This document shows, in pieces, positions 2,895-11,078 of a stretch of 42,544 nt of DNA (within the stretch, counting starts at the first letter, position 1; every line of letters starts with the position of its first letter). The position numbers were made by a program, and so were the translations under genes. Origin of the DNA: a virus. Lineage: Duplodnaviria > Heunggongvirae > Uroviricota > Caudoviricetes. Below the pieces are notes generated by a model that was not told the DNA's origin, did not search any database, and worked only from the letters and a program-made list of their open reading frames with translations. Where the stretch lies: positions 1 to 42,544 of IMG/VR virus record IMGVR_UViG_2718218358_000001. The stretch is one strand, 5' to 3'.

Positions 2895-3456
2895 GGTTAA
2901 CTTCCTGCGGCGGTTCCGGTAGCGGCATCCAGTGGGTTACTCCATGCCATATACCAGTTAAGATTTCAAACCTTGGCTCTCTGCCTTTCTGTGTCTTGGC
3001 ATATTCATTTCTTGTATATACGCATTGTCTAACTGCATATCCATTCCATCCAATAACTGTTTGTCTGATTTCAGGCATTCGCTCACTACAGCTTATCCAA
3101 CCATCCGGAGTTACCGGAGCTGGTCCGTCGAATTCGGGCATGTCAGGACCTTTTCTGATAGCTTTAGCCAGCTCCAGCGGGTCATCGTAAAGCCAGTCGC
3201 CAGTTTGTGGGTGATTTGCTTCTGCAAGCTGCGCAGCCCATTCAAGACCATCTTTTTGACCTTGGAGATAATCAAGTGGCAACTCTTCATGATTACTTGC
3301 AGGTTCGGCATTATCAGCTTCGCGCCGCTTCTGTAGCTCTGCTGCCATTGCTCTCACGACTTCAACTGGTGCCCTTGCAGCAAACTCTATGTTGGTGATC
3401 AGCTCATTAAGATATTGCTCGCCTGGATACTGTTTCTTATCGGTTATAGTGGTCAT
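2887..3456 (-). CDS. hypothetical early protein with DUF551-like C-terminal region
   Basis: track ORF trimmed to the ATG at 3456 preceded by AGGAGA SD; C-terminal W/H-rich motif (WISCSERMPE...WHGVTHWMPLPEPP) resembles the phage DUF551 domain. Confidence 0.55.
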   Translation of the reverse strand: MTTITDKKQYPGEQYLNELITNIEFAARAPVEVVRAMAAELQKRREADNAEPASNHEELPLDYLQGQKDGLEWAAQLAEANHPQTGDWLYDDPLELAKAIRKGPDMPEFDGPAPVTPDGWISCSERMPEIRQTVIGWNGYAVRQCVYTRNEYAKTQKGREPRFEILTGIWHGVTHWMPLPEPPQEVNRG

Positions 3457-6493: not shown

Positions 6494-6642
6494 TTCCTGC
6501 GATACCACGGAATGTTGATAGCTGATTTCATCGCTTTATTTGCTTCAAGCCACATTTTGGAATCACCAATAAATCTGGCTATTACTGCTTTGTTCTGTGC
6601 AGCACGAAGCATCTGGTGATTAATGGCTATTTCATTGCGCAT
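6490..6642 (-). CDS. hypothetical small protein (50 aa)
   Basis: below the track threshold; translationally coupled to neighbours. Confidence 0.3.
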   Translation of the reverse strand: MRNEIAINHQMLRAAQNKAVIARFIGDSKMWLEANKAMKSAINIPWYRRK

Positions 6643-6761
6643 AACGCCTCCAGTTGTTTCTTTGCTGCTCTGATTAATTGTTTAACTCGGCGTGATAATT
6701 CAGATTCGTGCGGGTAGAAAGCGGACATGACGCCGCTACCCGCGAGCTGAAAGTGCATCAT
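6627..6761 (-). CDS. hypothetical small protein (44 aa)
   Basis: ATG at 6761 preceded by AAGGAG SD at ideal spacing. Confidence 0.35.
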   Translation of the reverse strand: MMHFQLAGSGVMSAFYPHESELSRRVKQLIRAAKKQLEALCAMK

Positions 6762-6836: not shown

Positions 6837-7205
6837 TCAGGCGGCTTTGATAGTCATATCATCTGAATCAAATATTCCTGATGTATCGATATCGGTAATT
6901 CTTATTCCTTCGCTACCATCCATTGGAGGCCATCCTTCCTGACCATTTCCATCATTCCAGTCGAACTCACACACAACACCATATGCATTTAAGTCGCTTG
7001 AAATTGCTATAAGCAGAGCATGTTGCGCCAGCATGATTAATACAGCATTTAATACAGAGCCGTGTTTATTGAGTCGGTATTCAGAGTCTGACCAGAAATT
7101 ATTAATCTGGTGAAGTTTTTCCTCTGTCATTACGTCATGGTCGATTTCAATTTCTATTGATGCTTTCCAGTCGTAATCAATGATGTATTTTTTGATGTTT
7201 GACAT
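6837..7205 (-). CDS. hypothetical early protein (122 aa)
   Basis: ATG start with GAGGA SD; acidic protein. Confidence 0.55.
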   Translation of the reverse strand: MSNIKKYIIDYDWKASIEIEIDHDVMTEEKLHQINNFWSDSEYRLNKHGSVLNAVLIMLAQHALLIAISSDLNAYGVVCEFDWNDGNGQEGWPPMDGSEGIRITDIDTSGIFDSDDMTIKAA

Positions 7206-7346
7206 CTATTCATATCCTCATAGATAAAAAATCGCCCTCACACTGGAGGGCAAAGAAGATTTCCAATAATCAGAACAAGTCGGCTCCTGTTTAGTTACGA
7301 GCGACATTGCTCCGTGTATTCACTCGTTGGAATGAATACACAGTGC

Positions 7347-7535
7347 TTATTCGTCATGCATTTCAGGTAATTCTTCGTATTCGACTCCCCATACGTTTTT
7401 ACACCAACTAACTCGCTCATATCTTTTACAAAAATCAGACCACATAACTTGTGTTCCATCATGGTTTGTTATTACTTCTGTAATATCACCAACACTAACA
7501 AAACTGGTATTAGAAGCAGTTATTTTTACTTTCAT
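7347..7535 (-). CDS. hypothetical small protein (62 aa)
   Basis: ATG at 7535 with GGAGG SD; overlaps the upstream stop (TGATG). Confidence 0.45.
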   Translation of the reverse strand: MKVKITASNTSFVSVGDITEVITNHDGTQVMWSDFCKRYERVSWCKNVWGVEYEELPEMHDE

Positions 7536-7669
7536 CACTCACCTCCAAGAGCATTTGCAGCCTCTTTTGCTTTGTGAATCCATAGCATAGCCATGTAGTA
7601 CACAGCCTTTTCGTCGGCTCCTGTGATATCTTGCTCTGCCATCCATTTTGTAAATTCAACTGCGTTCAT
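7535..7669 (-). CDS. hypothetical small protein (44 aa)
   Basis: below the track threshold; GAGGTG SD. Confidence 0.3.
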   Translation of the reverse strand: MNAVEFTKWMAEQDITGADEKAVYYMAMLWIHKAKEAANALGGE

Positions 7670-7702
7670 ATTCACCTCTGTGGCTTGCTGCCAAAAGAAT
7701 CA

Positions 7703-7861
7703 TCAAAATCCTAACTGCCACAAAATACCTTTGATTGTGTACTCTCCGCTCCATCCTGAAACTGAGTAGCATCGACTGCCGTTTTTATAACTTTTTGTTG
7801 GTTTCATCTTTAATCCACGACTGGCAAGCAATGATTTTGTTAAAGATACATTCATGTTCAT
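7703..7861 (-). CDS. hypothetical small protein (52 aa), first ORF downstream of N
   Basis: below the track threshold; GAGGTG SD. Confidence 0.3.
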   Translation of the reverse strand: MNMNVSLTKSLLASRGLKMKPTKSYKNGSRCYSVSGWSGEYTIKGILWQLGF

Positions 7862-7869
7862 ATCTCACC

Positions 7870-8169
7870 TCAAATAAGTGGTTTGCTGCCTAATTTCATT
7901 TTCTGGCGACCAACACAAGTCACACCCATTTCACTGCGTGGCTTGCGGTAGTAAATACGATTCTGTTTACTCTCGACTTCTTCTGTCTTCTTGCAGCGAA
8001 GGCTTCCGAGTGATGCTGCTTTGTCTGCTCTGACGCAACCAGAGAGCTTTAGCGCAATTTTTCGCGCCAGTCGCTGCTCTTGCATTGCCTGTTCACGTTG
8101 AGTCTGTCTGCGTGCTCTGCGGCGATTTCTGGCGTTATCGTCAGCCAGATATGTAATGACTACTGTCAT
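7870..8169 (-). CDS. N: antitermination protein N (phage 21-like)
   Basis: track ORF trimmed to the ATG at 8169 with GGAGGT SD; N-terminal Arg-rich motif NARNRRRARRQ; C-terminus YYRKPRSEMGVTCVGRQKMKLGSKPLI resembles the N-protein C-terminus. Confidence 0.75.
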   Translation of the reverse strand: MTVVITYLADDNARNRRRARRQTQREQAMQEQRLARKIALKLSGCVRADKAASLGSLRCKKTEEVESKQNRIYYRKPRSEMGVTCVGRQKMKLGSKPLI

Positions 8170-8481
8170 GTTGACCTCCGATGAAACAACTTTGGAATTG
8201 ATAGTGATTGCAAAGTGGTTTCTGGCCCCTCGAATTGAGGGGCAGAAAGAGCATCTCGCCACCTAATAGGTCGATGCTCTGATCGAGAGATTTAATTAAC
8301 CTCGGTTTTGAAGTTATGCATTCACATAAATCCTCCTGTTGCATGTGCAGCATTGGCTGTGTTTGGCGGCTGCATTTCGCCTATGGAATTGACTTTGGCG
8401 GTGACGCGCCGGGTGCTTATCTTCCGGTTGCCGTCGTGCAGCTGCACTTCACGTCACCCCAAAGCCAACTACTCTTTGGTT

Positions 8482-8521
8482 CCCGCATTTCGGCGGGACA
8501 ATCCCATCAATGTTAAAGAGC
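8482..8521 (-). promoter_or_regulatory. nutL (boxA GCTCTTTAACA plus boxB hairpin CCCGCCGAAATGCGGG)
   Basis: boxA and boxB are identical to those in the rightward transcript at 9613..9654. Confidence 0.6.
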
Positions 8522-8568
8522 CTGCCAATCTGTTCCGTTTGGCTACCAGCGTCCTGCTGATGGCTTAA

Positions 8569-8586
8569 ATTTAAGATCTCTTTAAT
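8569..8586. promoter_or_regulatory. OL operator (ATTTAAGATCTCTTTAAT, P22 C2-type); pL expected in 8560..8660
   Basis: 18-bp site with the same ATTTAAG-N4-CTTTAAT pattern as the OR sites; further degenerate copies at about 8612..8651. Confidence 0.5.
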
Positions 8587-8663
8587 TAATGGTCAAGAGT
8601 ATTTTTGAAGAAAACTTAAATTTTCTTTCGTAACTTAAGTTTGGCTTTGATTTTTAAAGGAAA

Positions 8664-8687
8664 TAAAAAAAAAGGGGCGAATGCCCC
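8664..8687 (-). terminator. rho-independent terminator downstream of c2 (minus strand)
   Basis: hairpin GGGGC-ATTC-GCCCC followed by a T9 run on the minus strand, immediately after the c2 stop. Confidence 0.5.
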
Positions 8688-8688
8688 C

Positions 8689-9339
8689 TTATGGAAGGTT
8701 TGCTAGTTTTGCATCGACAACTACGCCGATGATTTTGCAGTTTCCGTTGATCTCGATCATCGGATATTGTGGGTTAAGTGGTTTTAGAAACTTCCTGCCT
8801 GCATCAATAACTAACTTCTTGAAAGTTGCCTCGTTTTCTCCTTCGAGCTTTGCAACTACCAGTTTCCCGTTACGCGGCTCTACTTCAGGATCGACGAGTA
8901 TTATCATTCCTTCAGGGATACTGAGACCGGCCGGAGCCGTCATTGAGTCTCCCTTCACGTCCAACCAAAACGAATCTTCTGAACAGTCTACGGTTGTATC
9001 GTACCAGTTATCTATTGCACGCTTATGATATGGTTCTACAGCTTCCATCCAGCATCCTGCGCTCACCCAGCTAATCAGAGGGTATGACCCTCTTGGATCA
9101 TGCCTACTGTGATAGGCAATGTTTGAAAGACTTTCCTCTCCTTTCATCAGATAGTCAGGGGAACACTTCAACGCATTAGCCAGGGCGAGAAGATTCTCTC
9201 CATTTGGCTCTGTCTCAGAGCGTTCCCACTGAGATATGGCAACATTAGACACGCCGACCATCTTTCCAAGTGCGGCCTGCCTGATCTTGAGTTCTTTTCT
9301 CCGAGCGCGAATGCGCTCTCCCATCAATTGAGTTTTCAT
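8689..9339 (-). CDS. c2: prophage repressor C2 (P22 c2 type; HTH plus LexA/S24-like cleavage domain)
   Basis: 216 aa; MKTQLMGERIRARRKELKIRQAALGKMVGVSNVAISQWERSETEPNGENLLAL... near-identical to remembered P22 C2. Confidence 0.9.
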   Translation of the reverse strand: MKTQLMGERIRARRKELKIRQAALGKMVGVSNVAISQWERSETEPNGENLLALANALKCSPDYLMKGEESLSNIAYHSRHDPRGSYPLISWVSAGCWMEAVEPYHKRAIDNWYDTTVDCSEDSFWLDVKGDSMTAPAGLSIPEGMIILVDPEVEPRNGKLVVAKLEGENEATFKKLVIDAGRKFLKPLNPQYPMIEINGNCKIIGVVVDAKLANLP

Positions 9340-9405
9340 AGTTAAGACATCTTAAATAAACTTGACTTAAGATTCCTTTAGTGGATAATTTAAGTGTTCT
9401 TTAAT
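9340..9405. promoter_or_regulatory. OR operators (three 18-bp sites at 9340..9357, 9365..9382, 9388..9405) with PRM/PR
   Basis: AGTTAAGACATCTTAAAT, ACTTAAGATTCCTTTAGT, ATTTAAGTGTTCTTTAAT between the divergent c2 and cro starts. Confidence 0.65.
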
Positions 9406-9419
9406 TTCGGAGCGAGTCT

Positions 9420-9605
9420 ATGTACAAGAAAGATGTTATCGACCACTTCGGAACCCAGCGTGCTGTAGCTAAAGCGTTAGGCATTAGCGACGCAGCAGTC
9501 TCTCAGTGGAAGGAAGTCATCCCAGAGAAAGACGCCTATCGACTGGAAGTCGTTACAGCTGGCGCCCTGAAGTATCAAGAAAGCGCTTACCGCAAAGCGG
9601 CATAA
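9420..9605 (+). CDS. cro: Cro repressor (P22 type)
   Basis: 61 aa; MYKKDVIDHFGTQRAVAKALGISDAAVSQWKEVIPEKDAYRLE... Confidence 0.9.
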   Translation: MYKKDVIDHFGTQRAVAKALGISDAAVSQWKEVIPEKDAYRLEVVTAGALKYQESAYRKAA

Positions 9606-9612
9606 GCAAATT

Positions 9613-9654
9613 GCTCTTTAACAGTCATGGTCCTCATTCCCGCCGAAATGCGGG
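9613..9654 (+). promoter_or_regulatory. nutR (boxA GCTCTTTAACA plus boxB CCCGCCGAAATGCGGG)
   Basis: same boxA/boxB as nutL; located between cro and cII. Confidence 0.6.
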
Positions 9655-9713
9655 AATACAACGCGCATAAGTTGATGCGCATAACTTCTTATTTGTTAAG
9701 GAAATACTTACAT

Positions 9714-10007
9714 ATGGTTCGTGCAAACAAACGCAACGAGGCTCTAAGAATCGAGAGTGCGTTGCTTAACAAAATCGCAATGCTTGGAACTGAGAAGACA
9801 GCGGAAGCTGTGGGAGTTGATAAGTCGCAGATCAGCAGGTGGAAGAGGGATTGGATTCCAAAGTTCTCAATGCTGCTTGCTGTTCTTGAATGGGGCGTCG
9901 TCGACGACGATATGGCTCGATTGGCACGACAAGTTGCTTCGATTCTCACCAATAAAAAACGCCCGGCGGCAACCGAGCGTTCTGAACAAATCCAGATGGA
10001 ATTCTGA
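9714..10007 (+). CDS. cII: CII-type transcriptional activator (lambda cII-like)
   Basis: 97 aa from the ATG at 9714 with AAGGA SD; MVRANKRNEALRIESALLNKIAMLGTEKTAEAVGVDKSQISRWKRDWIPKF... near-identical to remembered lambda CII. Confidence 0.85.
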   Translation: MVRANKRNEALRIESALLNKIAMLGTEKTAEAVGVDKSQISRWKRDWIPKFSMLLAVLEWGVVDDDMARLARQVASILTNKKRPAATERSEQIQMEF

Positions 10008-10039
10008 GGTCATTACTGGATCAATCCACAGGAGTCATT

Positions 10040-10201
10040 ATGACAAAACGTCGTAAGAAATACCAGGAAAAAGAAGATATTCGACACCCTGATTCACCTG
10101 AGGGATTAGTGGTAGCCGCAGCAAATAACAGGGCGTTCGCAGAGCGCCTTGTTGGTGTTTACAGACTAGCCAAAGCAGGAGTGAAACATGGGCGTCGTTA
10201 A
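10040..10201 (+). CDS. hypothetical small basic protein (53 aa)
   Basis: below the track threshold; ATG with CAGGAG SD, between cII and the replication initiator. Confidence 0.4.
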   Translation: MTKRRKKYQEKEDIRHPDSPEGLVVAAANNRAFAERLVGVYRLAKAGVKHGRR

Positions 10202-10250
10202 GTTAGCTGATTACAGGCATAACCCTGTACAACATCAGGAGGCATCCAGT

Positions 10251-11078
10251 ATGGGGTATGTCTCTATACACCGCCAGTTTATGGACAGCAGGCTCTATAA
10301 GGACTCTCAGGCAGTACATCTTTGGCTTCACTTAATCCTCAAGGCTAATCACGAATCTACTGTCGTCAATACGGATATCGGTCCGATAACTGTTGATCGC
10401 GGTCAGATGATAACTGGACGCCCGTCGCTGGTCAGAGAAACATTCATCCCAGACAACAAAGTTCGGAGCTTATTACGGACTTTTGAGTCGAAAGGGATGC
10501 TTAATATTTGCTCGATGGGGAAGAAATTTAGCCTGTTTACAATCGTTAAATATGACGATTTTCAGGCAAAAAATTGTCCAACGGTTGTCCAACCGTTGTC
10601 CAACGCAAACACCAGTAATGGCGCGGCTCTCAGCGGAGATTGTCCAACGGTTGTCCAACGGTTGTCCATAAACAATAATATAAATAATATCTCTAATACT
10701 GACGTATTAGAGAGTACCGCAGCAGACAAAAAGTCTGACAAGAAAAAACCTTCCGTTAGCTGTCAGGATGTTGTCGATGCTTACCACGAAATCCTTCCTG
10801 AAGCGCCAAAAATCCGCGCACTGAATGACAAGCGTAAAAACCAGATCCGAACGTTCTGGCGCAAAGCCGGAGTGATAACCCGCCAGCTTGACGGGCATGG
10901 GTTCACGATGCAGGACTGGAGAAATTATTTGAGCTACGTAGGCGAAAATTGCCGATGGATGTTCGAAGAGCGCCCAAACCATCAGCGCGGAACCGTCTGG
11001 CACAAAAAGGGATTTGATTTCCTGCTTAACGATAATACCTACCTGAAAGTTCGTGAGGGTGAACACGATGACCGATAA
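10251..11078 (+). CDS. replication initiation protein (lambda O / P22 gp18-like)
   Basis: track ORF trimmed to the ATG at 10251 with AGGAGG SD; contains the ori iterons in its coding sequence, as lambdoid O genes do. Confidence 0.75.
   Translation: MGYVSIHRQFMDSRLYKDSQAVHLWLHLILKANHESTVVNTDIGPITVDRGQMITGRPSLVRETFIPDNKVRSLLRTFESKGMLNICSMGKKFSLFTIVKYDDFQAKNCPTVVQPLSNANTSNGAALSGDCPTVVQRLSINNNINNISNTDVLESTAADKKSDKKKPSVSCQDVVDAYHEILPEAPKIRALNDKRKNQIRTFWRKAGVITRQLDGHGFTMQDWRNYLSYVGENCRWMFEERPNHQRGTVWHKKGFDFLLNDNTYLKVREGEHDDR
10574..10672. repeat. origin of replication: six TTGTCCAACGG-type iterons in two triplets, followed by an AT-rich tract
   Basis: iterons at 10574, 10585, 10596, 10640, 10651, 10662; AT-rich region 10670..10700. 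Confidence 0.7.

Follow-up and report, generated by a model that had tools for sequence, protein, structure and literature searches.

Introduction

In phage lambda, N/Nus bound at nutL represses translation of the N gene over about 200 nucleotides (nt) of structured leader, and RNase III, which cuts a hairpin in that leader (Wilson et al. 2002, cited in PMC5725501), relieves the repression (PMC5725501 and papers cited there). For the boxA element of such sites, Baniulyte et al. (PMC5725501) derived GYTCTTTAANA as the functional consensus, and the closest described nut sites to those considered here are nutL and nutR of phage HK620 (GenBank AF335538; Clark et al. 2001). Here we analyze the leader between the early promoter pL and the antitermination gene N in a temperate phage of the P22-like/lambdoid type, represented by the whole 42,544-nt stretch of IMG/VR record IMGVR_UViG_2718218358_000001, hereafter the window. 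A sequence-only reading of this DNA had taken a boxA-boxB pair shared by both early transcripts as the functional nutL/nutR, and had offered a second boxA-like string with its own hairpin, further down the N leader, as a relic nut site, an RNase III site or an element controlling N translation. We located every boxA, boxB and second-hairpin sequence that it described, each at the coordinates it gave. Our comparison assigns the shared pair to the HK620-type N antitermination system, and places the second element in a 204-nt leader cassette, where it is predicted to be half of a conserved double hairpin and not a nut site.

Results

A boxA-like string paired within a conserved double hairpin

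The second element consists of GCCCCTCAATTCGAGGGGC, which is unique in the window (8225-8243, minus strand), and of the adjoining boxA-like TGCTCTTTCT at 8244-8253. In the consensus structure this string is base-paired along its length: GAUGCUC is the 3' arm of one hairpin (hairpin A, AGAGCAUC...GAUGCUCU, 8248..8280, minus strand), and UUUCU forms the 5' side of the lower stem in another (hairpin B, UUUCU-GCCCCUC-AAUUC-GAGGGGC-CAGAAA, 8219..8248, minus strand, core 8225-8243), which adjoins hairpin A without a spacer. Across 26 distinct sequences, 94.6% of cells pair in the proposed structure, compared with 40-51% when the partners are slid by one to three columns. Compensatory changes are seen in eight pairs, and none of five measures was reached by any of 500 shuffles, although the sequences are related, so that the shuffle controls overstate significance and the slid controls are the fairer test. 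The outer helix of hairpin A is 100% paired, with compensatory changes in three of its five pairs; in two lineages, GCUCUUU has become GUUCUUU by a C-to-U change, and the opposite arm has changed from G to A to match it (GAGCAUC/GAUGCUC becoming GAACAUC/GAUGUUC), and one base pair of hairpin B passes from G-C to U-A to A-U across variants. Four diverged variants gave the same two hairpins on folding (z between -3.4 and -5.7), the fold of hairpin A being unchanged in each. Several conserved G.U pairs are compatible with the N-sense strand only, and thus the conserved structure belongs to the pL transcript. The element is under purifying selection on its structure; it is being maintained, not decaying.

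We next compared the two parts of this element with what is expected of a nut site. The 7-mer GCTCTTT occurs 15 times in the window versus 7.8 expected, so the boxA-like match is of little weight alone, and GCTCTTTCTGC departs from the boxA consensus at positions 8, 9 and 11. The loop of hairpin B comes in eight kinds (AAUUC, AGUUC, AUGUC, UAAUU, UUAU, UAUAU, CAAU and GACAG), a variety that a boxB recognized by a specific peptide would not allow. A second copy of the hairpin was found neither in the window nor in its pR operon, and a covariance model finds one copy per related locus. Hairpin B was also tried as an intrinsic terminator and set aside: it has no U-tract, as the sequence-only reading had remarked, its tail being CAGAAACCAC, and the terminator scan called nothing there.

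A 204-nt cassette between the long leader stem and N

Alignments of pL-to-N leaders delimit a cassette of 204 nt (8184..8387, minus strand) that contains both hairpins. Compared with HK620, phage 21, lambda and P22, in whose leaders the Shine-Dalgarno (SD) sequence of N directly follows a long stem, it appears as a clean indel, and it occupies the interval between that RNase III-type stem and the N ribosome-binding site. Folding the pL leader RNA, a check suggested with the sequence-only reading, recovers the long imperfect stem in the minimum-free-energy structure of the whole leader (GGCUUUGGGGUGACG...CGUCACCGCCAAAGUC, 8391..8466, minus strand), and the A and B stem-loops fold as well. In alignments, the arms of this long stem line up with leader sequence of lambda, phage 21 and HK620, and every relative compared keeps the stem. 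Because of the inserted cassette, boxA and the N SD are about 340 nt apart in the window versus about 135 nt in HK620. The long stem has indel variants of its own, with about 100 extra nt inside it in some E. coli prophages (L008, L009).

Read 5' to 3' on the minus strand, the cassette comprises a small hairpin, an exposed SD, an AUG-stop, an upstream open reading frame (uORF), hairpin A, hairpin B and a weak hairpin C. The leading hairpin (hairpin 0, UGCAGC...GCUGCA, 8346..8374, minus strand, from RNAalifold) is tentative and weak; a small hairpin stands at the same place in diverged variants, with stability no better than that of shuffles. Behind it lies a strong SD, AGGAGG, followed after 4 nt by an AUG-UGA start-stop containing the motif AUGUG (8322..8337, minus strand), in a region predicted to be unpaired. 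This arrangement is invariant in all 26 distinct sequences, and the block AGGAGGAUUUAUGU(G/A)AAU is invariant also in members found by BLAST only (HK140, CUS-3, five E. coli prophages and a plasmid). Since the IMG/VR and metagenome members were retrieved by a pattern containing the SD-AUG block, the invariance is unbiased only in the BLAST-found members (HK140, CUS-3, L005-L009 and the plasmid pTOK). The sole substitution in the SD-AUG-stop block, UGA to UAA in pTOK and in the distant variant L055, keeps the stop.

The start-stop is followed by a nine-codon uORF, AUG CAU AAC UUC AAA ACC GAG GUU AAU UAA (MHNFKTEVN; 8292..8321, minus strand). Every variant keeps an open reading frame of eight to nine codons that ends 29-33 nt past the first AUG. 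It mostly starts at the second AUG, after the stop; the CUS-3 type has AUA there and starts its nine-codon frame at the GUG of AUGUG. We thus observe, in a 5' untranslated region, an accessible SD and a short conserved reading frame ahead of a conserved structure, the features of a uORF or leader-peptide cis-regulatory leader, with translation predicted. At the downstream end, hairpin C (ACUUUG...CAAAGU, 8189..8216, minus strand) is weak and not exceptional on folding (z = +0.5), and re-creates, immediately ahead of the N SD, the CCAAAG with which the RNase III-type stem ends. Longer reading frames were considered as proteins and rejected: the 41-amino-acid frame annotated in HK140 and a 70-amino-acid frame at 8141-8353 are both absent from CUS-3, and the frame that starts at the AUG of AUGCUCUUU shifts with the length of its A-run and is missing in L055.

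The cassette is patchily distributed. Among 50,697 phage records only HK140 (99.5%) and CUS-3 (73%) carry it, and it is present in 162 of 5426 complete E. coli genomes, at 171 places. HK620-type nutL leaders occur in about 800 E. coli genomes, and about 20% of such leaders contain the cassette. It was found once per locus in 65 IMG/VR prophage loci, and on 20 metagenome contigs; these 20 copies were all of the two common types, with no new variant type. A scan of a genome collection likewise gave no new variant type, its three matches all being enterobacterial and of a distant tandem plasmid form. In all prophage loci inspected, the cassette is single-copy and lies downstream of the long stem and ahead of the N start, whatever the type of N. 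At least four N types are represented, namely the HK620 type, the P22 gp24 type (with the P22 boxB), a third presumably resembling the N of 933W/H-19B, and a fourth, and each has its own canonical nutL upstream. In one prophage (L049, about 3150-3360, minus strand), an additional reading frame of 66 amino acids (MSSRISNEQKDRL...) intervenes between cassette and N and uses the CATCGGAGG SD that normally serves N.

The borders and interior of the cassette bear traces of exchange. In P22-type leaders, a 14-nt stretch of native P22 sequence, CAAAGCCATTTCAC, is directly duplicated on either side of it, and in the window its flanks repeat TCAATTCCA and CCAAAGT. The region is labelled 'boundary sequence' in the CUS-3 annotation. 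Two E. coli prophages (L005, L006) have mosaic copies, a CUS-3-type 5' part joined to a window-type 3' part or the reverse, which indicates recombination inside the 204 nt.

We found no Rfam 15 covariance model that covers the cassette, either in the window (7000-11000, E up to 10) or in the CUS-3 and pTOK loci (E up to 1), where the only match was sok, adjoining the plasmid copy. A description of the cassette was not found in the literature searched, and it is apparently undescribed. Promoter and terminator scans called neither inside it on either strand, and a search for a partner by complementarity within the window gave chance matches of at most 12 nt.

The shared boxA-boxB pair as HK620-type nutL and nutR

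The boxA sequence GCUCUUUAACA (DNA GCTCTTTAACA) occurs as an exact match at 8511..8521 on the minus strand and at 9613..9623 on the plus strand, the positions equivalent to the annotated nutL and nutR of HK620. Allowing up to one mismatch, these are the only two sites in the window; 0.9 are expected and 22% of shuffles give two or more, so the boxA match alone is not significant. It fits the functional consensus at all positions. The boxB 16-mer CCCGCCGAAATGCGGG has two exact copies (8482-8497, minus strand, and 9639-9654, plus strand), versus 0 expected from 100 shuffles. Flanking U and A residues lengthen the stem in both sites, so that folding gives 6-8 base pairs around the hexaloop CGAAAU: UCCCGC-CGAAAU-GCGGGA in nutL (8481..8498, minus strand) and UUCCCGC-CGAAAU-GCGGGAA in nutR (9637..9656, plus strand). 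The spacer between boxA and boxB is 13 nt in nutL, as the sequence-only reading had it, and 15 nt in nutR.

Both sites occupy canonical positions, nutL between pL and N and nutR between cro and cII/tR1, the layout annotated in HK620, phage 21 and P22, and base for base they are the putative nutL and nutR of the HK620 GenBank record. Across related leaders, and in line with a comparison of boxB among phage families that had been proposed for this pair, the boxB type changes with the arginine-rich motif of N: CCCGCCGAAAUGCGGG accompanies the HK620 motif, GCGCUGACAAAGCGC the P22 gp24-type N and UCUCAACCUAACCGUUGAGA the phage 21 N. The CGAAAU-loop boxB goes with the HK620-type motif in the window, HK620, HK140, CUS-3 and L049. 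The assignment of the shared pair as nutL and nutR of an HK620-type N system is thus supported by identity with HK620, canonical position, agreement with the boxA consensus and the tracking of boxB with the N motif. Such sites are already known, those of HK620 being annotated as putative only; a published experimental test of HK620-type nut sites was not found in the literature searched. In the predicted mechanism, N would bind the CGAAAU-loop boxB through its arginine-rich motif (DNARNRRRARRQTQREQ), NusB/E would bind the consensus boxA, and RNA polymerase leaving pL and pR would then become resistant to termination.

Relatives of the cassette on plasmids

A 120-nt homologue of the cassette is present on 11 conjugative Klebsiella and E. 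coli plasmids. It has the same SD-AUG-UAA arrangement, a uORF encoding MHKFKSESK, and both hairpins, A and B, the loop being different. The plasmid copy belongs to a long array of genes that all point the same way and stands about 10 kilobases (kb) from mobI. Near it are hok/sok, an orphan methyltransferase and a CRISPR array; Pfam searches on its neighbours were uninformative. On plasmid pECTOK-001_1, the CRISPR array is found about 6 kb downstream of the cassette copy, in the same gene block started by mobI (L172:16305-16705), and its repeat is GTGTTTCCCCTGCGTGCGGGGGTTATCGG, with a periodicity of 61 nt. The covariance model also detects two weaker, tandem relatives in an unannotated intergenic region of about 100 large Citrobacter, Klebsiella and Enterobacter plasmids (L146:5355-5613, minus strand; L165; L171), each of which combines a G+C-rich hairpin with an SD and a mini-ORF (MLSLRSNS; MRTRNFKSESM).

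A proposed role in N expression and its rivals

Taken together, we think it probable that the leader combines HK620-type nutL/nutR with a separate cassette that acts in cis and after transcription on N. Of the functions offered for the second hairpin, control of N translation is the most plausible class, with the whole 204-nt unit of uORF and tandem hairpins, not a single hairpin, as the functional element. The comparisons above show the anatomy, conservation, covariation, strand, position and distribution of the cassette; from these we infer ribosome loading, RNase III cleavage and an effect of the cassette on N along the following lines. RNase III would cut the leader at the long stem, upstream of the cassette, and a ribosome held at the start-stop or uORF, together with two very stable tandem hairpins, would act as a barrier close to the 5' end so created. 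Such a barrier could hinder 5'-end-dependent decay of the N message, and the cassette could also alter the reach of the repression of N translation by nutL-bound N/Nus. The cassette would thereby set, in cis, the stability and translation of the N message.

Several observations weigh against a role in N control, besides the relatedness of the aligned sequences and the pattern-based retrieval described above. About 80% of HK620-type leaders in E. coli are without the cassette, so it is dispensable for N function. Folding did not predict that the cassette pairs convincingly with the N SD, and the 5' part of the cassette is no more structured than shuffles. The plasmid copies are not upstream of any N gene, and therefore the function of the module would be more general than control of N.

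We weighed the cis-acting cassette against five other explanations. The second boxA-like string and hairpin might be a relic or still-functional second nut site, serving another N or Nun specificity or acting like the suhB boxA to repress N translation via Nus; TGCTCTTT agrees with the first seven to eight bases of boxA, the G+C-rich stem is like that of lambda boxB (GCCCU/AGGGC), lambdoid genomes are mosaic, and boxA elements in 5' untranslated regions can repress translation (PMC5725501). Single changes, however, abolish the function of the suhB boxA (PMC5725501), and the string here is off consensus at the three positions given above. It becomes GCTCTTC, GTTCTTT or GGGCTTT in variants, the C-to-U change being compensated on the opposite arm of hairpin A. 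There is also no spacer before the hairpin, the loop varies freely, no twin exists in the rightward operon or elsewhere, and the cassette accompanies at least four N specificities that each have a canonical nutL. We therefore give a second nut site almost no credence, and the suggestion that it is a relic is contradicted, because compensatory maintenance is the opposite of decay. Processing of the second hairpin by RNase III or another nuclease would recall the processing of the lambda N leader by RNase III (literature cited in PMC5725501). Hairpins A and B, if coaxially stacked, would near two helical turns. Hairpin B alone, at 7 + 3-4 base pairs, is short for an RNase III substrate, for which an extended duplex of about 20 base pairs or more would be expected. 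It is a different structure, the long stem at 8391-8466, that corresponds to the lambda RNase III hairpin and aligns with the N-leader stems of lambda and phage 21. Because its arms line up with those of the hairpin cleaved by RNase III in lambda, this long stem, and not the second hairpin, is likely the RNase III site of the leader, cleavage being extrapolated from lambda; that the second hairpin is a nuclease site appears very improbable. Two stable stem-loops 0-1 nt apart in an early leader, found also in a long unidirectional plasmid operon, bring to mind the put RNAs of HK022, in which two adjacent stem-loops act in cis and directly on RNA polymerase as antiterminators, without protein factors. 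The sequences are unlike, however, and the covariance model finds nothing at HK022 putL or putR even with filters off; put sites stand in both early operons while the cassette element is single-copy, and all examined phage carriers also have a complete N/nut system, which leaves a put-like function extremely unlikely.

The two remaining explanations concern the cassette as a whole. It could be the precursor of a trans-acting non-coding RNA cut from the pL leader, by RNase III upstream and another nuclease downstream, with a regulatory or anti-defence role, for example as a Racr-like mimic of CRISPR repeats that titrates Cas6e-type proteins. Racrs occur in phages and plasmids as solitary, repeat-like hairpins of non-coding regions (PMC10651486), the cassette lies in the earliest and strongest phage transcript, and the plasmid copy, at its distance from mobI and near hok/sok, the methyltransferase and the CRISPR array, would in a leading region be suited to early anti-defence expression. 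The CCCC...GGGG stem of hairpin B is like type I-E and IV-A repeats, and in L055 hairpin B (6640-6680; CUUCCCCACC-CAAU-GGUGGGGAUAGA) equals at 19 of 22 positions what we take to be the Klebsiella type I-E* repeat, a score that 0 of about 12,000 background windows matched. This match is weak evidence, being one in 24 comparisons of low-complexity stems. Hairpin B of our phage is itself unlike the E. coli I-E, Klebsiella I-E*, T. thermophilus I-E, I-F and plasmid IV-A3-like repeats, ranking about 2000th of 17,000 windows, and the likeness is at most marginal in the CUS-3, L052 and pTOK variants. The cassette, moreover, has no terminator or promoter of its own and no extended complementarity elsewhere in the window, and its strict placement before N suggests a role in cis. 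We regard a trans-acting RNA as improbable. Its boldest form, in which the cassette would be a new class of early-leader RNA of lambdoid phages and conjugative-plasmid leading regions, released by RNase III as an anti-defence decoy (such as a repeat mimic binding Cas6e or Csf5), with the uORF and its ribosome serving to stabilize it and with no part in regulating N, we regard as highly improbable. Alternatively, the cassette could be selfish or neutral, a small segment that is mobile or spread by recombination and that settled at a permissive spot of the N leader without serving the phage. Such an insertion would account for the patchy spread (about a fifth of HK620-type leaders and two distinct isolated phages), the flanking direct repeats, the internal mosaics and the 'boundary sequence' label. 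Yet helices are kept by compensatory changes between variants just 73% identical, and the stop-preserving substitution, together with the upkeep of uORF length through alternative starts, indicates selection at the RNA level. Nor do the variants have terminal inverted repeats in common, a 7-nt GAAATGC/GCATTTC pair being confined to the P22-type context, and a single copy at one site in every prophage locus inspected, with 171 places in 162 genomes, is unlike the copy number of miniature inverted-repeat transposable elements. A neutral insertion is for these reasons doubtful.

The early region of the window

The pL promoter lies at 8568..8596 on the minus strand (-35 TTGACC, -10 TAAATT; promoter scan). 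Its transcript begins at about 8561 with CATCAGCAGGACGC, a 5' end common to lambda, phage 21, HK620 and P22 and placed here by homology with their leaders and with the annotated pL start of phage 21. The N gene with its SD spans 7870..8179 (minus strand; SD GGAGG 8175-8179, AUG 8167-8169, stop 7870-7872) and encodes, at 7870-8169, a protein of 99 amino acids. It is 98% identical to the N of CUS-3, 85% to that of HK620 and 69% to that of phage 21; its Pfam N_peptide match is weak and below the cut-off, and its arginine-rich motif is identical in the HK620 and CUS-3 proteins. This N is a mosaic. Residues 1 to about 60, the arginine-rich motif included, are near-identical to the HK620 type, and the part that binds RNA polymerase, at the C-terminus, follows the phage 21/lambda type (RSEMGVTCVGRQKMKLGSKPLI), HK620's own being of the P22/H-19B type.

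Upstream of pL, a repressor gene of the P22 c2-like type occupies 8689-9339 (minus strand). Its transcript is ended, just upstream of the pL operators, by a strong intrinsic terminator (AAGGGGGCATTCGCCCCTT and a T-run; 8671-8690, minus strand), an arrangement that is the same in phage 21 and HK620. To the right, cro (9420-9605, plus strand) is followed by a cII homologue, with nutR between them. Just after nutR, a hairpin with a U-rich tail (GCGCAUAAGUUGAUGCGC; 9662-9695, plus strand) is identical to the region of the tR1 annotated in HK620.

Discussion

The nut-site half of this analysis adds nothing new; it re-finds the HK620-type nutL/nutR, by a sequence-based assignment. The other half identifies a look-alike of boxA plus boxB as part of a covarying, conserved RNA in a modular cassette, one that recurs across unrelated N/nut specificities and has a partial copy on plasmids, and it cautions against calling nut sites by motif alone. 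If the cassette tunes the amount of N, it would act at the first decision point of lambdoid development, as a regulatory layer that lambda does not have, and natural pairs of leaders with and without it, such as HK140 and HK620, make this idea directly testable. The finding is thus a candidate regulatory RNA at a classic control point, and a candidate new cis-regulatory RNA family for Rfam, without any surprise about antitermination itself.

Among described systems, HK620 shares with the window boxA, spacer and boxB in both sites, the arginine-rich motif of N, and the positions of the nut sites relative to pL, N, cro and cII. The window differs in its phage 21/lambda-type N C-terminus, its P22 c2-like immunity region and the extra 204 nt in its leader. 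The lambda N leader has the same order of pL, nutL, RNase III hairpin and N, with long-stem arms GGCTTTGGGG...CCAAAG in common. Its boxB, however, has a GNRA-like pentaloop where the window has the hexaloop CGAAAU, and we know of no uORF or tandem hairpin in the lambda leader.

For the features inside the cassette, the nearest parallels lie elsewhere. Start-stop and uORF leaders of E. coli, for which start-stop sites are reported (bioRxiv 10.1101/520783), likewise place an AUG-stop behind a strong SD. The cassette's AUGUG offers AUG and GUG starts in two frames, each used by different variants for the nine-codon uORF, and corresponds to the two-frame initiation at AUGUG reported for E. coli (PMC9841429). 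What sets the cassette, with its predicted start-stop and uORF, apart from these leaders is the coupling to abutting tandem hairpins and an antiterminator gene, which is not known to have been described. With the suhB-type boxA (PMC5725501) it has in common a boxA-like string in a 5' untranslated region, about 75 nt upstream of the start codon, but the string is off consensus, base-paired and not conserved as a boxA. The HK022 put RNAs are likewise two adjacent stem-loops in an early-operon leader, with which the cassette shows no sequence or model similarity; it is single-copy, and it coexists with N. Finally, like the RNA anti-CRISPRs and solitary repeat units (PMC10651486), it presents a solitary, G+C-rich, non-coding hairpin in phages and plasmids with early expression, although the hairpin of the window is not repeat-like and that of one distant variant, L055, is.

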